A stretch of DNA of 64,000 nucleotides, taken from IMG/VR virus record IMGVR_UViG_3300035676_000001. One strand, written 5' to 3'. The position numbers and the translations under genes were made by a program. The notes under the pieces are model-generated. The model made no database searches, was not told the origin of the DNA, and saw nothing but the letters and a program-made list of their open reading frames with translations. Shown here one piece after another: positions 21,724 to 29,100 of this stretch. Numbering within the stretch: position 1 is the first letter of the stretch; every line of letters begins with the position of its first letter. The stretch is from a virus (lineage: Duplodnaviria > Caudoviricetes).

Positions 21724-23586
21724 TTAGTCTCCTCCTAATGCTAGAATGAATGGTGTCATTGTTGAGAACAAACTCTTAGAATAGAACGTACCGGAAATAG
21801 TTCCTGTTGTCTGATTAATTGCTACACCCTCACCAATTCTGAAATTACCAGATTGATCTGTGCTTGTGTAAACAACCAGACCGCCATTTTTCATATCAAC
21901 TTCATTGTCCTGAATTGGTACACCACCAGCAAAAGGAAGAGCAGTTGTAATATCTGTTCCTGAACCAATATATTCAAAAGAATGCCCAGAAGCTAAAATT
22001 CTACTTTGTTTAAAGAATGGAATTGAAACACCAGCACCCACAACATATGGCACATTTTCATTTGTTGTAATTGTACAAACACCTGCAGAAATTGGAGTAG
22101 AACTTTGGATCGTATAATATGAAGGCGTTAATTGTATAGTAGCAGTTGCTGTATTTATTCCAACATCTGGAGCACTAATTGTAATCGTTGGAACTGAAGT
22201 ATATCCTCTACCACTTGAAACAATTTCAAAATCAACTACACTTCCATCACTAATTTCCGCAACTGCTTGAGCAGCAACTCCCCAAGTTGAAACTGTACTT
22301 GGATCTTGAATCGTAACTGTTGGAGTGGTAAGATATCCAGTTCCACCAGATCCAACAGTAATTTTTCCAACAGTGTAATATAATGTATCAAAATAAATTA
22401 CTTGTCCGTCAAATGGGCGAATGAGATTTAGTTTTGCAGTTCCACCAGAGTTATAAGTATGAGGTAAAGTAGAAGTTCCAACATTAACACTAAAAGTATA
22501 TGTTGTTGGTGTACTTAATACTGTAAAGACATAACCATTATTTCCACTTGGATATGTTACAATTCCAGGTCCAGAAGGGCAAGTAAAATTAAGACCAGAT
22601 ATTGAAACACCCACACCAACATCGAATCCGTGCTCATTGTCAGTGGTAATCGTTACAATACCAGTCGTATTAGTATACGTTGCATTAGTTACATTAAATG
22701 TTGGATTATTAAATGCTACTCTGAATGTATCAGCATTAACATCACTAGAGGTTGAAAGTATTCCAGTATATTTTCTTTGCCCAACACCATCAGAAACTAA
22801 ACCATAATTACCAAAAGATGAGTTAGAGTTTGTAAGGTCGCAAGCACCACCAGAAGAACAATAAACAGCAATATTTGGACAAATTGTGAACAGAGATACT
22901 AACTGAGCATATCCTTCATTCGTAATTGAAACACCAACTCCAGCACTATTATATTGCGTAAATGAATCAGTAACCATACTCTTGAGTGGTCCAAGAGCGT
23001 GATTGCCATCAATCTTCATTCCAATACTATCGGGAATGAAATTTGTACAGTTTCTAATATAAGGTGATTGATTAAAATATCTTAATGTATCTGGGTCAAA
23101 TGCTACAATTGCACCACCACCAGTTGATGCTCCAGTGAATGAAACTTCAGTAATGTAATTTCCAGGAGCAACGTGAAATAAATCGCCAGGATTTTGTGGG
23201 GTAATTGAAACCTCTCTTAAACTATCACCAACAATACTAACTTGTGGTGGAAGTTTAATAGGATTATTTTCTATATAAGATCCAGCAGCAACTTTAATAA
23301 CTGTTCCTGTTGTTGAGATTGCAACTGCTCCTGCGATTGTTGCTTTGGCGTCTCCAAGTTTGAATCCTGTGTTTGTATCTTTTCCGTCTTTTGTGACATA
23401 TAAAATATTTGTAACTGTTGTACCTGAGCCAATTCTTACTACTTCTGATCCGATACCTACTCTATTTCTTACAGCATAGAGTTCTGCATCATTAAGATTA
23501 TAGGCTAATTCGCCGTATTGTAGGGCTCCTTGTGCTGGTATTTTTCCAGGTACAGCAGAGCGTTTAATCCTAATCGGAGTTCCCAT
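21724..23586 (-). CDS. Virion structural protein with beta-helix-like region
   Basis: IRIKRSAVPGKIP...GELAYN N-terminus, SPYIRNCTNF...SMVTDSFTQ region. Confidence 0.75.
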   Translation of the reverse strand: MGTPIRIKRSAVPGKIPAQGALQYGELAYNLNDAELYAVRNRVGIGSEVVRIGSGTTVTNILYVTKDGKDTNTGFKLGDAKATIAGAVAISTTGTVIKVAAGSYIENNPIKLPPQVSIVGDSLREVSITPQNPGDLFHVAPGNYITEVSFTGASTGGGAIVAFDPDTLRYFNQSPYIRNCTNFIPDSIGMKIDGNHALGPLKSMVTDSFTQYNSAGVGVSITNEGYAQLVSLFTICPNIAVYCSSGGACDLTNSNSSFGNYGLVSDGVGQRKYTGILSTSSDVNADTFRVAFNNPTFNVTNATYTNTTGIVTITTDNEHGFDVGVGVSISGLNFTCPSGPGIVTYPSGNNGYVFTVLSTPTTYTFSVNVGTSTLPHTYNSGGTAKLNLIRPFDGQVIYFDTLYYTVGKITVGSGGTGYLTTPTVTIQDPSTVSTWGVAAQAVAEISDGSVVDFEIVSSGRGYTSVPTITISAPDVGINTATATIQLTPSYYTIQSSTPISAGVCTITTNENVPYVVGAGVSIPFFKQSRILASGHSFEYIGSGTDITTALPFAGGVPIQDNEVDMKNGGLVVYTSTDQSGNFRIGEGVAINQTTGTISGTFYSKSLFSTMTPFILALGGD

Positions 23587-23639
23587 TTATAATATGCGGT
23601 ATCTACCAGAAAGCAGTATGTACTGCCTCATATATTTAT

Positions 23640-24011
23640 TCAACTTGCATTATTCCTTCTTGGGCGATAAGCGTAAAGATTTGTAGGTGCTTCTGGTTTC
23701 ATCCAATTTTTAATCTTCTCATAGTTATCATATGAAAAGAAATCCTGATTATAATACCATTCTTCCCAAGGAGTATGTCCCTTAGATTGATTGCAAGAAT
23801 GGCAACAAGCAACTACATTTCTTGTAGTATCAGACCCACCTTTTGATTGAGGAACAATATGGTCTAATGTGAGATTATCTTCAGACTCACAATAGGCACA
23901 TCGGTTTTCCCATTTCTCTCTTATACTTCGCCTCCACATTCGTTTTGCTTCTGCTGAACTTGTCGTCTTAAGATTGAACAAGTATTGCTGAGGCGAAGCG
24001 AAGAGATCCAT
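23640..24011 (-). CDS. HNH endonuclease
   Basis: CAYC...LTLDHIVPQSKGG...NVVACCHSCNQSKG. ATG at 24011 preferred over track start. Confidence 0.85.
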   Translation of the reverse strand: MDLFASPQQYLFNLKTTSSAEAKRMWRRSIREKWENRCAYCESEDNLTLDHIVPQSKGGSDTTRNVVACCHSCNQSKGHTPWEEWYYNQDFFSYDNYEKIKNWMKPEAPTNLYAYRPRRNNAS

Positions 24012-24038
24012 AAGCACTTGCGACTTACGATTATTTAT

Positions 24039-24359
24039 TCATACGACCACAGGTTTCCCTTGACCTTGTGGAAGTTTTTTAACTGGTTGCATCGGTTGCC
24101 TTCCCCTTAGGTTATAAGGATCAATACCTTCTGGAATTGGATCATCCCACTTGCCACCCACAATTTCATTCGTTGGAAGTGCTTTTGGAATCTCAACATC
24201 AATCACAGGACTCATCAGAATCTTATTGCGAGTATAAGTTCGATTCTGTGGATCAAAAGAAACCATAGCAAGAGCATCAAACTCTTCACCACAGTCTAAA
24301 AGTTTTCTTCCAGTCTTGGTCTCAATGACTGAATAATATTCTTCATTATACTTTTTCAT
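24039..24359 (-). CDS. Conserved cyanophage hypothetical protein
   Basis: Track ORF, YSVIETKTGRKLLDCG. Confidence 0.65.
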   Translation of the reverse strand: MKKYNEEYYSVIETKTGRKLLDCGEEFDALAMVSFDPQNRTYTRNKILMSPVIDVEIPKALPTNEIVGGKWDDPIPEGIDPYNLRGRQPMQPVKKLPQGQGKPVVV

Positions 24360-24586
24360 CTTCTATTTCTTTTTCTTCATTATAAGATGGTTCTGGTTTT
24401 CTGTAAAGACCAGGCCAAGTATCTCTAATAATTTCTGCGAGTTTATATGGAGTTGTGGACGATATCATAAGTCTTGTGTGATGGACAATATAAACATAAA
24501 AATTCCAAAGAGTTGAAAAAGTATGAGTATGAGAAGCATAAAAAAAGGAGTTCTTGTGGAACTCCCTTATTTATTTTTATAGGAGA

Positions 24587-24721
24587 TTAAGATCCTCCCT
24601 GTGAATAAACAGGTTGCAAAATTCCTCCATCTTGGTCATCGTCATCATCATGATTCTCAGTGAAAATAACGATAGCAGCGAATACAAAGATAACCAAGTA
24701 TAGAAGGTATTGTGTGGTCAC
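24587..24721 (-). CDS. Small membrane protein with acidic tract
   Basis: Hand translation [47 protein letters not shown] start overlapping the psbD stop. Confidence 0.55.
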
Positions 24722-25779
24722 AGTGCGTTGCCCCTTGGAAGAACTTCCTCTGGGAACACAAAGTTCTCATGAGGTTGGTCTACTGGAGCCATCCAAGCAC
24801 GAAGACCTTCATTCAGAAGAATGTTCTTAGTGTAGAAGGTTTCAAACTCAGGATCCTCTGCTGCACGAATCTCCTGACTTACGAAATCATAAGCGCGAAG
24901 ATTAAGAGCGAGACCAATAATACCAATAGATGATGTCCAAAGCCCCATGACAGGCACAAATAACATGAAGAAATGAAGCCAACGCTTGTTGCTGAAAGCA
25001 ATACCAAATATCTGCGACCAGAAGCGGTTCGCAGTAACCATCGAATAAGTCTCTTCTTCTTGCGTAGGTTCAAATGCTTTGAAAGTGTTCGCTTGTTCAC
25101 CGTCTTCAAATAGAGTGTTTTCTACAGTTGCTCCGTGAATTGCACAGAGCAGTGCTCCACCTAGTATACCAGCAACTCCCATCATATGGAATGGGTTGAG
25201 GGTCCAGTTGTGGAAACCCTGAAGGAAAAGAAGGAACCTGAAGATTGCTGCCACACCAAATGAGGGTGCAAAGAACCAACTGGATTGTCCCAGTGGATAC
25301 ATCAGGAATACAGAAACGAATACTGCAATAGGACCAGAAAACGCAATAGCATTATAAGGACGGATGCCGACCAGACGAGCAATCTCAAACTGGCGAAGCA
25401 TAAATCCAATCAAACTAAAGGCGCCGTGGAGTGCCACAAAAGTCCAGAGTCCCCCAAGTTGGCACCACCTGACGAAATCCCCCTGAGCTTCAGGACCCCA
25501 GAGCAGAAGAAGAGAATGACCCATAGAGTCTGCTGGAGTACTAACTGCCGCAGTAAGAAAGTTTGCACCCTCAAGATAGGAACTTGCCAACCCGTGAGTA
25601 TACCAACTCGTAACGAAAGTTGTCCCAGTAAGCCAACCGCCAAGAGCAAGGTAAGCAGTGGGAAAAAGAAGAAGTCCAGACCAGCCAACAAAAACGAAAC
25701 GATCTCGCTTAACCCAGTCGTCGAGTACATCAAACCATCCCCTTTGTTGAATAGGTTGTGAAAGTGTTGAAGAAGTCAT
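24718..25779 (-). CDS. psbD: Photosystem II D2 protein
   Basis: [21 protein letters not shown]...[10 protein letters not shown]. Confidence 0.98.
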
Positions 25780-25800
25780 AGCCTCCCTAGTGATTTCTCA

Positions 25801-25834
25801 TATTTATGTTAACATATCTTAACAGAGAGGTCAA
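25801..25834 (-). promoter_or_regulatory. psbD sigma70-like promoter plus late promoter
   Basis: TTGACC-17-TAACAT overlapping CATAAATA. Confidence 0.55.
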
Positions 25835-25840
25835 TGAGTA

Positions 25841-26278
25841 TTAGTGCTCATCCCTATGCCGTTTAACATACTCAATCATATTTCTAATTAATTCAACATC
25901 TTCATTTACATAACCAATAGTTCTGTTACAGACATTGCAGAGAAGTCCACGAACCTCACCAGTTTTATGATTGTGGTCAACATAAAAAACATCTACTCCA
26001 CCACCTCTACCAGATTTTCTACCTTTCGGGTCAGTGGAATTGCAAATAGCACACTTATGCCCTTGTTTTTCTAACAGAGTATTATATTCCTCAATACCAA
26101 TACCATAAACTCTTTTCAAATTTTCATCCCTCTTTTTTACTGGGTCGTAATTTTCTTGTTGCTTTTTTACATAACATTTTTTACATTTTCCGTGATGCCC
26201 ATATGGACTACCGTTTCTTACAGTTTGATAGAACTCCGTAAGTGGCTTTAACTGATTGCAGATTTTACAAGTTTTCAT
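25841..26278 (-). CDS. Free-standing homing endonuclease, Endonuclease VII family (F-CphI-like)
   Basis: CAIC...VDHNHKTGEVRGLLCNVCN motif. Position between psbA and psbD as known for F-CphI in S-PM2. Confidence 0.85.
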   Translation of the reverse strand: MKTCKICNQLKPLTEFYQTVRNGSPYGHHGKCKKCYVKKQQENYDPVKKRDENLKRVYGIGIEEYNTLLEKQGHKCAICNSTDPKGRKSGRGGGVDVFYVDHNHKTGEVRGLLCNVCNRTIGYVNEDVELIRNMIEYVKRHRDEH

Positions 26279-26330
26279 AGTCGGTTTAGTTGTTAAAGTT
26301 ATTATACCATAACTTTAAGTATTTAGCAAT

Positions 26331-26352
26331 AAAAAAGACCCCTTTCGGGGTC
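26331..26352 (-). terminator. psbA intrinsic terminator
   Basis: GACCCC-GAAA-GGGGTC-TTTTTT. Confidence 0.85.
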
Positions 26353-26374
26353 TCCGTTAGAAAAATCTAACTTA

Positions 26375-27457
26375 TCAACCAATCGCAGGAGCAGTCAAAG
26401 CAACAGGAGTTGCTTCGGCAGCAGCAAGGTCTAGTGGAAAGTTATGGGCGTTTCTCTCATGCATCACTTCCATTCCGAGTCCAGCACGGTTCAGGACATC
26501 TGCCCAAGTATTGAGCACACGACCCTGACTATCCAGAATACTCTGATTGAAATTCAGTCCGTTGAGATTAAAAGCCATGGTGCTAACACCAAGAGCAGTG
26601 AACCAAATACCAACTACTGGCCACGCCGCTAAAAAGAAGTGCAGCGAACGGGAATTATTAAAGGAAGCATATTGGAAAATAAGGCGTCCGAAATAACCGT
26701 GAGCAGCAACGATGTTGTAGGTCTCTTCTTCTTGACCGAACTTGTAACCATAGTTCTGCGACTCATTCTCAGTGGTTTCACGAACCAGCGAGGAAGTAAC
26801 CAGAGAACCGTGCATAGCACTGAACAGAGAACCACCGAAGACACCAGCAACTCCAAGCATGTGGAAGGGGTGCATCAGGATGTTGTGCTCTGCCTGGAAC
26901 ACAAGCATGTAGTTAAAAGTACCAGAGATACCCAGGGGCATCGCATCAGAGAAAGAACCTTGACCGAAAGGATAGACCAGGAATACAGCAGATGCAGCAG
27001 CAACAGGTGCCGAGTAAGCAACACAGATCCAAGGACGCATACCCAGGCGGTAGGAGAGTTCCCACTCACGACCCATGTAAGCGTAGATACCAATCAGGAA
27101 GTGGAACACAACCAGTTGGAACGGACCACCGTTGTAAAGCCACTCATCTAGGGAAGCAGCTTCCCAGATGGGGTAAAAGTGCAGTCCAATAGCATTGGAC
27201 GAAGGAATAACAGCACCAGAGATGATGTTGTTTCCGTACATGAGTGAACCAGCAACGGGTTCACGGATACCATCAATGTCCACAGGGGGAGCACCGATGA
27301 ATGCGATGATGAAACAAGTCGTAGCAGCAAGCAGGCAAGGAATCATCAGGACTCCAAACCAACCGACATAAAGACGATTATCGGTTGAAGTAACCCAATT
27401 GCAGAACTGTTCCCAAGTATTCGATTGTGATTTTTGACGTGAAAGTGTAGCAGTCAT
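26375..27457 (-). CDS. psbA: Photosystem II D1 protein, no intron
   Basis: Continuous 360-aa D1 ending [14 protein letters not shown]. Confidence 0.99.
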
Positions 27458-27469
27458 TTTTAATAAACA

Positions 27470-27545
27470 GGTAGTAAGACCATCAGGGAAATGGTGGAGT
27501 TACTATGCTCCCGCCACCCTCAGGCGGGATATGAGAGACGTAATT
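27470..27545 (-). ncRNA. psbA 5' leader RNA, PhotoRC-II-like
   Basis: Hairpins TCCCGCC/GGCGGGA and ACCAT/ATGGT between TATAAAT and the psbA start. Family name from recollection of the PhotoRC motifs. Confidence 0.6.
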
Positions 27546-27650
27546 TATACACCCATAGGTCTCGGTTAACGGGTGTTGACAATGTTAAGAAATATGAGTA
27601 TTTCGTAACATTTGTTTACCTATTTATCATACTACGGTCTGGTTCTGGTG

Positions 27651-27815
27651 TCAAGCCCTGTACTCTTCAATCTTATCCAGGACTTTGTTGAGATAATGAT
27701 GCGCCAACCACTTTGGATCGTACCCAGTCTTATTCATCCACTCGTTATCCAAGTCCTTTTTCAATTTAAGAACTTGAACTCTCATCTCATCTTTAGTTAG
27801 TTGATTTCTAGGCAT
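27651..27815 (-). CDS. Conserved cyanophage hypothetical protein
   Basis: Hand translation MPRNQLTKDEMRVQVLKLKKDL...LDKIEEYRA. Confidence 0.6.
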   Translation of the reverse strand: MPRNQLTKDEMRVQVLKLKKDLDNEWMNKTGYDPKWLAHHYLNKVLDKIEEYRA

Positions 27816-27862
27816 AAAAAAAGGACCCTCTTCTTTATATAGAAAAAGGTCCTCTTAATTTA

Positions 27863-28390
27863 TCAGACCTGTGCGGTTTCCCTCACAGTTGTTTTCACAT
27901 ATTCAAATACTGCTTCTGGAGTAGTTTCTTCATAAGGGTCAGTGTCGGCATTATCACGCTGCCCTGCTTCAACAAACAGTTTTTCAATAACACCGTTGTC
28001 TACCACAGCAGCGTAACGCCAACTGCGCTGACCGAAGCCAAGATTCGACTTGCTGACGAGCATACCCATCGAACGGGTGAAGTATGAGTTTCCATCGGGA
28101 ATCAGTTTTACATTTTGGATGTTTTGGTCTTGTGCCCAGGCATTCATTACAAATCCGTCATTAACAGAAATGCAGTAAATAGCATCCACACCAAGACTAA
28201 TAAAATCATCAAACTTCTCTTCAAAACCAGGCAGTTGATATGCACTGCAGGTAGGAGTAAATGCACCAGGAAGTGAGAAGATAACTACACGCTTACCATC
28301 AAAGAGTTCTGCGGAAGTGCGTGTTACAAATTCTCCATTTTCACGAAATTGAAATTGGACTTCGGGAATAGTATAACCTTCTTTACGCAT
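27863..28390 (-). CDS. Peroxiredoxin (PRX5-like)
   Basis: FSLPGAFTPTCS motif. GGAGG RBS before ATG 28390. Confidence 0.9.
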   Translation of the reverse strand: MRKEGYTIPEVQFQFRENGEFVTRTSAELFDGKRVVIFSLPGAFTPTCSAYQLPGFEEKFDDFISLGVDAIYCISVNDGFVMNAWAQDQNIQNVKLIPDGNSYFTRSMGMLVSKSNLGFGQRSWRYAAVVDNGVIEKLFVEAGQRDNADTDPYEETTPEAVFEYVKTTVRETAQV

Positions 28391-28401
28391 TTTAACCTCC
28401 A

Positions 28402-28521
28402 TCAGAACACACCAGGAATGATTTGTCCAGTGACCAGATACGAACCAGCAGCAGCAACGAATCCAATCATCGCAGCCCAACCATTAATGCGTTCTGCTTT
28501 TTCAGTAAAAATTTTGTTCAT
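28402..28521 (-). CDS. hli: High-light inducible protein
   Basis: Not in track. MNKIFTEKAERINGWAAMIGFVAAAGSYLVTGQIIPGVF (ExxNGxxAMxG). Confidence 0.9.
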   Translation of the reverse strand: MNKIFTEKAERINGWAAMIGFVAAAGSYLVTGQIIPGVF

Positions 28522-28820
28522 TTGTTTTCTCCTTTATAAGGGTGTTGTTGTTTAAGTTCTGGATTGGGTTGGGAGAAGACCATAGGACTTTTGGTTTTAT
28601 TTTTGATAACAATAAAAGCGTCGTTCTGATATGATACGGTCCCAAATGGCTTTGCCCACTTTGCATTTGCTTCTGGGTGAGTCGCAGTTCCAGTTACTGC
28701 TACACCACCGATTTCAACAGAGAGTTTATCATTTTTATCCCAAGTACCTTCTTCTATAAGTTGTTGAAGAGCAATACTAAGTTGCCCCAACATATCACCA
28801 GTTACCACAGCAGCATTCAT
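28518..28820 (-). CDS. Conserved cyanophage hypothetical protein
   Basis: Track ORF, start moved to MNAAVV. Confidence 0.6.
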   Translation of the reverse strand: MNAAVVTGDMLGQLSIALQQLIEEGTWDKNDKLSVEIGGVAVTGTATHPEANAKWAKPFGTVSYQNDAFIVIKNKTKSPMVFSQPNPELKQQHPYKGENK

Positions 28821-28906
28821 CAATAAGTTTCCGCAACTTTCTCTACAGCATAACACAGAAGCACAAAAAAGGCAACTGAGGTAATAGTGAAAATTGTTTC
28901 AGTCAT
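28820..28906 (-). CDS. Small membrane peptide
   Basis: MTETIFTITSVAFFVLLCYAVEKVAETY, start and stop overlap both neighbours. Confidence 0.5.
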   Translation of the reverse strand: MTETIFTITSVAFFVLLCYAVEKVAETY

Positions 28907-29100
28907 CAGAAGATACCGAAGAAGAAGTTGCCAGTGCTAACATAAGAAATGATGCCAGCAACAAAACCGACCATTGCCCAGCGCCCATTAGTCCTCTCCT
29001 TTACTTGATTAGGTGTGAGCATACCATAGTTCTCATAATACATGGTGGGCTCTTTGGCAAACATATTTTGTTGCCCATACTCATTAGTTGTTACAGTCAT
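28906..29100 (-). CDS. hli: High-light inducible protein with N-terminal extension
   Basis: KERTNGRWAMVG motif, start MTVTTNEYG. Confidence 0.9.
   Translation of the reverse strand: MTVTTNEYGQQNMFAKEPTMYYENYGMLTPNQVKERTNGRWAMVGFVAGIISYVSTGNFFFGIF

Follow-up and report, generated by a model that had tools for sequence, protein, structure and literature searches.

The psbA gene of the window, by which is meant the whole 64,000-nucleotide stretch of viral DNA that was analysed, carries near its 3' end a patch of unusual codons that coincides exactly with the sole mapped target of the F-CphI enzyme family and with the site of the psbA intron of S-PM2. The patch is an inherited, circulating haplotype and not a recoding event of this phage, and the way in which it is distributed among related alleles suggests that it is probably a resistance allele. 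The fuller statement, that it would resist cleavage by either the resident or a competing enzyme, is one on which we are evenly balanced. The CAT and AGA codons that make the patch conspicuous are individually ordinary, and the TTT codon for Phe340 appears to be the better candidate for the determinant. An open reading frame (ORF) directly downstream of psbA encodes, as judged from its motifs and position, a free-standing member of the F-CphI family of homing endonucleases (DHHRN, EndoVII motif), and occupies the psbA-psbD slot of a T4-like cyanophage. The locus, in the order in which it would be read, is made up of the following features.

27626-27654, minus strand: promoter-like TTGACA-17-TATGAT, upstream of the PhotoRC-II motif
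27495-27587, minus strand: PhotoRC-II leader of psbA (RF01717, 82 bits)
26375-27457, minus strand: psbA (D1), a single uninterrupted ORF of 360 codons, with 82-87% nucleotide identity to cyanomyovirus psbA (the psbA genes of Synechococcus myoviruses)
26334-26355, minus strand: terminator-like hairpin and T run, 3' of psbA
26301-26329, minus strand: sigma-70-like promoter, TTGCTA-17-TATAAT, TG-extended, ahead of the endonuclease gene (consensus match only)
25841-26278, minus strand: free-standing F-CphI-family (EndoVII motif) endonuclease, 145 amino acids (Pfam, BLASTP, catalytic residues, dN/dS)
25852-26371, minus strand: optional cassette of terminator, promoter and endonuclease (spacer comparison with endonuclease-free relatives)
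25806-25834, minus strand: promoter-like site ahead of psbD
24718-25779, minus strand: psbD (D2)
23640-24017, minus strand: HNH endonuclease ORF (Pfam HNH_5, E 6e-15)

An earlier, sequence-only reading of this DNA had described psbA as having no protective intron and as being followed directly by an EndoVII-family gene, and on both counts it was right. The gene is one ORF of 360 codons, no group I intron was found in window positions 23000-29000 by a search in which S-PM2-type introns are detectable in relatives, and the next ORF (25841-26278) is a match to PF02945.

The match to Pfam PF02945 (Endonuclease_7) extends over residues 52-139 of the ORF product (E 2.8e-22), and BLASTP aligns the protein at full length with F-CphI of S-PM2 (residues 2-142 on 10-142, 39% identity, E 9e-30), including the N-terminal, putative DNA-binding part. 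The protein contains an N-terminal CxxC...CxxC arrangement (C4/C7...C32/C35), whilst in its C-terminal part C76/C79, D101, H102, H104, R110, C114/C117 and N118 are all kept. The DHHRN residues and both Zn motifs of F-CphI are hence conserved, and it is by these residues that the DHHRN family is defined (PMC6083498). The best database matches are EndoVII-type genes of T3/T7-like phages, at 41-43% identity (e.g. phiYeO3-12 gp13.5); like their intron-encoded relatives, these share with the window enzyme the endonuclease clade of PMC6083498, but the phages are of other types, and their loci and presumed targets are different. No endonuclease more than 60% identical to that of the window was found in the phage collection isolates.

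Copies of the gene that are 66-99% identical occur in around 38 IMG/VR contigs, always directly 3' of psbA and with all ORFs intact. The dN/dS ratio is 0.03-0.2, with synonymous sites saturated between lineages, and together with the intact ORFs this low value indicates that the gene is old and maintained, and is not decaying. The cassette is replaced by 43-165 unrelated bases in the endonuclease-free contigs L291, L242, L227 and L283, and the endonuclease region is an optional cassette under purifying selection. In the last three of these contigs the psbA-psbD slot that holds the endonuclease here is filled by a conserved ORF of about 38 amino acids with a hydrophobic sequence (MSHN...IYWG). 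Within a quasi-random sample, 9/104 psbA contigs among those listed have an EndoVII-family gene downstream; at least six lineages, with mutual identities of 30-50%, are represented by these genes and have been swapped at the one locus. All frequencies from the psbA contig scans are sample estimates among the matches listed, and related contigs are non-independent.

Several other endonuclease lineages have left traces of how their cassettes are bounded. In L002 (1145-1797), L007 and L096 (3710-4289) a second copy of the psbA tail (...LAAASTTPVAMTAPSIG, followed by the stop codon) forms the end of the endonuclease ORF, and in L002 a perfect direct repeat of 56 nt brackets the cassette. The psbA-tail copy and the terminator of L096 are common to the L002 cassette, although its endonuclease is only 34% identical. 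The L009 sequence is that of L002 minus exactly 556 nt, such that the two form a natural pair without and with the endonuclease. A similar isogenic pair was sought for the endonuclease lineage of the window, as a source of a conversion tract, but none closer than about 92% was found, L002/L009 being a pair for another lineage. The HNH ORF at 23640-24017 also has mobile relatives, in that homologues with 48-72% identity are located at varying positions around psbA and psbD in other contigs, and in some of them (L042, L059, L201, L295) directly 3' of psbA.

The codon patch itself, with the known sites that fall on it, is made up as follows.

26432-26464, minus strand: patch, codons M332-L342, ATG CAT GAG AGA AAC GCC CAT AAC TTT CCA CTA
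26424-26483, minus strand: equivalent of the 60-bp F-CphI substrate, with 11/60 differences, all synonymous, 7 of them in M332-P341
26450-26455, minus strand: codons R335 and N336, between which lies the S-PM2 group I intron insertion point, unoccupied here
26438-26440, minus strand: F340 TTT, the patch codon whose link with an EndoVII-family gene downstream is strongest, in several endonuclease lineages

The patch encodes the D1 segment MHERNAHNF, a motif of Mn-cluster ligands. The eleven codons noticed in the sequence-only reading are present, although they span 26432-26464; the bound of 26429 given there takes in one further codon (GAC). Its observation that CAT and AGA are confined to the patch, with earlier His codons all CAC and earlier Arg codons all CGY, was borne out by a codon count. 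CAC is used for each of the first eight His codons of psbA (93-273), and the gene has CAT only at His333 and His338, whilst the first 11 Arg codons are all CGT or CGC and Arg335 is the sole AGA. When three rare codons are placed randomly among the 22 His/Arg codons, 1/1540 triples lie within six codons, a result that is nominally significant in a test that is post hoc.

What that reading stated of S-PM2 also proved accurate. The 212-nt group I intron of S-PM2 splits psbA between CGT and AAT, which correspond to R335 and N336 of the window, and the 60-mer substrate of F-CphI, taken from S-BM4 psbA and published in Table S3 of PMC6083498, falls on the patch. In relatives, inserts of 202-258 nt occupy three points that all fall in a stretch of some 20 nt (psbA codons 331-338; L182, L193, L191, L241, L183, L238). 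Those after R335 (L182 and L193) and the one after A337 (L191) are group I introns confirmed with Rfam, and those at V331/M332, of about 254 nt, are below the Rfam threshold. The patch segment is thereby marked as a place where mobile elements concentrate, a hot spot. Intron-protected alleles retain CGT335 and CAC338, and for CGT335 a splicing constraint may be responsible. In one contig, L216, an intron of the S-PM2 type is accompanied by an endonuclease from a further lineage, which has 95% identity to the L102 enzyme. Further upstream, the psbA genes of some endonuclease-carrying contigs are split by inserts of 700-900 nt, at codon ~62 in L156 and L157 and at codons ~184-232 in L164 and L163, and the L156 insert is a group I intron by Rfam. 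The hot spot also contains non-synonymous change, as Met332, which stands beside a Mn ligand His, is replaced by Val or Ser in L166-L168, L181, L186, L215, L243 and L252, in alleles both with and without an endonuclease.

The exact patch haplotype (24/27-mer; CAT or CAC at 338) is found in only 19 IMG/VR contigs. An EndoVII gene lies directly downstream in 14/19 of these against 9/104 of the background, among the contigs listed (Fisher 7e-9), and when counted by lineage about 7/11 haplotype carriers have such a gene (p 9e-6). The remaining five carriers (L009, L300, L304, L404, L405) have the haplotype without the endonuclease. The carriers include two endonuclease lineages that are mutually only 43% identical, and although the patch is identical in them, 25-30% divergence separates their psbA flanks and tails, which makes simple linkage hard to invoke. 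The sharing of the haplotype with a second endonuclease lineage and among psbA genes of diverged background overturns the earlier suggestion that the recoding was carried out by this phage. The broader suggestion of immunity by synonymous recoding survives in part: the haplotype is enriched beside EndoVII genes, but CAT and AGA are common codons elsewhere and one enzyme is found with four haplotypes. Those four are seen in L146, L150, L169 and L170, whose endonuclease genes are 94-97% identical in nucleotides; CGT/CGC, CAC338 and TTC340 are among the codons of the haplotypes beside them, and recombination junctions lie between patch and endonuclease. In the well-sampled L123/L147-155 lineage, with an enzyme that is 93% identical, the site reads CAC GAG CGC AAT GCT CAT AAC TTC.

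The individual codons differ in how closely they follow the endonuclease. TTT340 is present in 33/39 (about 85%) of the intron-less endonuclease-linked alleles from unbiased scans, covering at least four endonuclease lineages, and in 11/79 random and 18/50 same-clade endonuclease-free alleles among those listed; within the clade, F340 is the most differentiated codon of 262-360. The idea that the patch codons are unique to endonuclease carriers had to be rejected, since psbA alleles without an endonuclease often have CAT, AGA or AGG, and for CAT and AGA this tells directly against the sequence-only reading. Among distinct endonuclease-free alleles listed in a quasi-random sample, AGR335 is found in 24/79, CAT338 in 22/79 and CAT333 in 38/79, and in endonuclease-free alleles of the closest clade AGR335 reaches 37/50 (74%) and CAT338 35/50 (70%). 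The alleles linked to the window's own endonuclease lineage have AGR335 in 24/26 and CAT338 in 23/26, and within the closest clade neither codon differs significantly between alleles with and without the endonuclease (p 0.07 and 0.09). Special conservation of the patch in carriers was likewise rejected, the ratio of patch codon diversity in endonuclease-linked to that in endonuclease-free alleles being 0.98.

When alleles with and without the endonuclease are compared codon by codon, Fst against the random sample forms two sharp islands, at codons 295-302 and 335-340. Both weaken in a same-clade or whole-gene comparison, and when the whole gene is scanned inside the clade, some codons of the 5' half are as differentiated as F340. 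Carriers differ from the validated F-CphI substrate at 6.7 of 30 nt, and are thereby farther from it than random alleles, which differ at 4.1 (p 1.5e-4), but they are not clearly farther from it than same-clade alleles (n=5).

The psbA gene of the window has a mosaic history in its 3' part. Over codons 40-250 it has an identity of about 95% with L019, L028 and L102; from codon ~255 (~26690) to the stop the genes are 17-37% diverged. The milder codon drift that had been reported back to about 26720 is real as divergence, but is explained as a mosaic junction near codon 255. The 5' two-thirds of the window psbA match contigs that have other endonuclease lineages, which fits with exchange of the cassette along with the psbA 3' end. 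A tract of near-identity surrounds the endonuclease gene.

25448-26588, minus strand: block of about 1.1 kb, spanning psbA from codon ~293, the endonuclease, and psbD as far as codon ~110, near-identical to L008, with flanks 10-25% diverged

This block is a candidate co-conversion tract. Where other pairs of contigs share a near-identical endonuclease, the block ends at codons 241, 272 and 295; in four pairs altogether the edges fall at codons 241-295, whereas in further pairs they are at codons 350-359, between patch and endonuclease. The earlier view that the 3' psbA allele spreads by intron-less homing gains from the near-identical block that takes in the endonuclease, but not from the pairs with edges at codons 350-359.

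The other Fst island is located upstream of the patch and alters the protein.

26540-26572, minus strand: second island, codons 296-306, including L301 (usually F) and N302 AAT

Residue 301 of D1 is Leu here and a near-universal Phe elsewhere. All 26/26 distinct alleles linked to the window's endonuclease lineage have changes in the NGFNFN sequence (GLNFN 15, GFNYN 8, GWNFN 2, GMNFN 1), as against 0/79 random endonuclease-free alleles changed at 301/303 among those listed, and in unbiased samples GFNFN is unaltered in alleles with endonucleases of other lineages. The N302 AAT codon has the highest Fst in psbA (0.62-0.73). A change at 301/303 that is exclusive to the window's endonuclease was nevertheless rejected, because 66/97 GLNFN contigs in a targeted scan are without the endonuclease. 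The variants may be a marker of the clade, or a resistance allele that has outlived its endonuclease. HNH genes are also commoner in the GLNFN/GFNYN clade (14/48 against 4/79).

Three other accounts of the patch have to be set against resistance. In the strongest of them, which we see as possible although clearly the weaker account, the patch is part of a neutral mosaic: the 3' third of psbA would have recombined in from a family of alleles with lower GC3, the patch codons would be old polymorphisms, and the association with the endonuclease would reflect linkage and clade structure. The junction at codon ~255, in a gene whose comparisons are patchy throughout, is what such an account predicts, and the high frequencies of AGR335 and CAT338 in same-clade endonuclease-free alleles, the fading of the random-sample Fst islands under clade control, the undiminished diversity of the patch among endonuclease-linked alleles and the occurrence of one enzyme with several haplotypes all point in the same direction. 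Linkage, however, would be expected to act on the psbA tail, situated as it is between patch and endonuclease, no less than on the patch, and it is the tail that is 25-30% diverged and the patch that is identical. Neutral descent is also hard to reconcile with the recurrence of the haplotype beside two endonuclease lineages that have so little identity, with the position of F340 as the top codon of 262-360 within the clade, and with the exact coincidence with the sole mapped F-CphI site.

It is rather unlikely, though still worth weighing, that the endonuclease lineage targets codons ~296-306 (NGFNFNQS) instead, in which case protection would come from the change of F301 to L, M or W or of F303 to Y, and the 332-342 patch would provide immunity to other F-CphI-like competitors for the slot or would be a passenger. 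The change at 301/303 in every lineage-linked allele, in four forms, and in none of the random endonuclease-free alleles agrees with such a target, as do the peak of Fst at N302 AAT, the edges of identity blocks at codons 293 and 295 in two pairs and the fact that the patch haplotype is typical of B-type enzymes, which are those closest to F-CphI. Against this, the many GLNFN alleles without an endonuclease and the parallel enrichment of HNH genes suggest that the variant may just mark the clade in which the enzyme circulates, and the position is without biochemical or intron-site precedent. Very improbable, finally, is that the ORF is not a psbA homing endonuclease at all, but a resolvase, a general nuclease or a decayed element, with the rare codons serving translation or roles at the RNA level. 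Its catalytic motif is indeed common to the T4 EndoVII resolvase, and an S-PM2 antisense RNA spans the psbA 3' end and F-CphI (PMC2984593). The motif is, however, C-terminal, as in the endonuclease clade as opposed to the resolvase clade, the distribution is sporadic and cassette-like with at least six lineages swapped at one locus, and purifying selection is strong; most psbA genes are without the rare codons, which are consequently dispensable for D1 synthesis.

The preferred reading remains that of a resistance haplotype. The haplotype covers the MHERNAHNF-coding segment, which is targeted by F-CphI-type enzymes as well as by three group I introns, and it moves by recombination among psbA alleles that bear such endonucleases. 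It most likely persists through resistance to cleavage, whether by resident or by competing F-CphI-like enzymes, the latter of which would otherwise displace the cassette. The base most consistently involved would be the third position of F340 (TTT), and not those of CAT or AGA. We infer only, from comparison of natural alleles, that the enzyme may cut psbA, where it would do so and that the haplotype may protect against it. Protection of the carrier by target polymorphism is a textbook expectation for free-standing endonucleases. Among free-standing phage endonucleases, polymorphisms in the target are the accepted means by which the host allele is spared, as stated for MobE (PMC2790892).

The closest known system is that of F-CphI (S-PM2 ORF177). 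As with F-CphI, the window enzyme has the C-terminal CX2C, DH(D/N)H, R, CX2C and N together with the N-terminal CxxC...CxxC, aligns at full length, is encoded directly 3' of psbA and ahead of psbD, and is accompanied by a patch on the mapped F-CphI target and intron insertion site. Unlike F-CphI, with which it has only 39% identity, its target is putative. Unlike the collaborative homing of S-PM2, the psbA of the window is intron-less, so that S-PM2-type intron protection is absent, and there is no extra ORF between endonuclease and psbD. The gene is, on its sequence and setting, a new intron-less member of the F-CphI family in a classical intronless homing arrangement. It resembles T4 SegF, SegG and MobE in being optional and in lying between conserved genes, and the co-conversion of flanking markers in those systems has a possible counterpart in the near-identical 1.1-kb block. 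SegF, SegG and MobE differ in being GIY-YIG or HNH enzymes with genetic and biochemical proof, whereas the present case is comparative.

The psbA gene is the best-known host-derived gene of marine phages, and its patchwork evolution has been described without a mechanism being tied to its cause. If selfish endonucleases next to psbA select certain variants of their target, silent ones or even changes of amino acid, and drag psbA 3' ends between phages, then part of this mosaicism would be explained. The locus would also offer a natural case in which intron-based and polymorphism-based protection occur at one site, and its alleles would serve as natural substrates with which the specificity of the F-CphI family, so far little studied, could be defined. 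In practical terms the claim is a modest one, because protection by target polymorphism is already expected of free-standing endonucleases. As a more tentative and on balance doubtful extension, the 30-bp stretch that codes for the Mn-cluster ligands of D1 (MHERNAHNF) could be viewed as a battleground, in which one locus is contested by at least six lineages of EndoVII-family enzymes, by HNH genes and by group I introns with three insertion points, psbA alleles carry layered scars of resistance (the silent haplotype, and F301L/M/W and F303Y, which go with one endonuclease lineage) and endonuclease-driven co-conversion is a main cause of the long-known psbA mosaicism.

A comparable arrangement exists in cultured phages. 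The isolates S-B05 (MK799832) and RB11-B (PV261925) also have an intron-less psbA followed by an EndoVII-family ORF and then psbD, but their endonuclease is of another lineage (~50% to B type) and their site reads CAC GAA AGG AAC GCA CAC AAT TTC. This endonuclease is annotated as 'hypothetical protein' (S-B05) or 'recombination endonuclease VII'. In S-B05 (L402, where the locus is at 927-2399) and RB11-B (L403), psbA is annotated from an internal Met, as a protein of 323 amino acids, with the full N-terminus present upstream.
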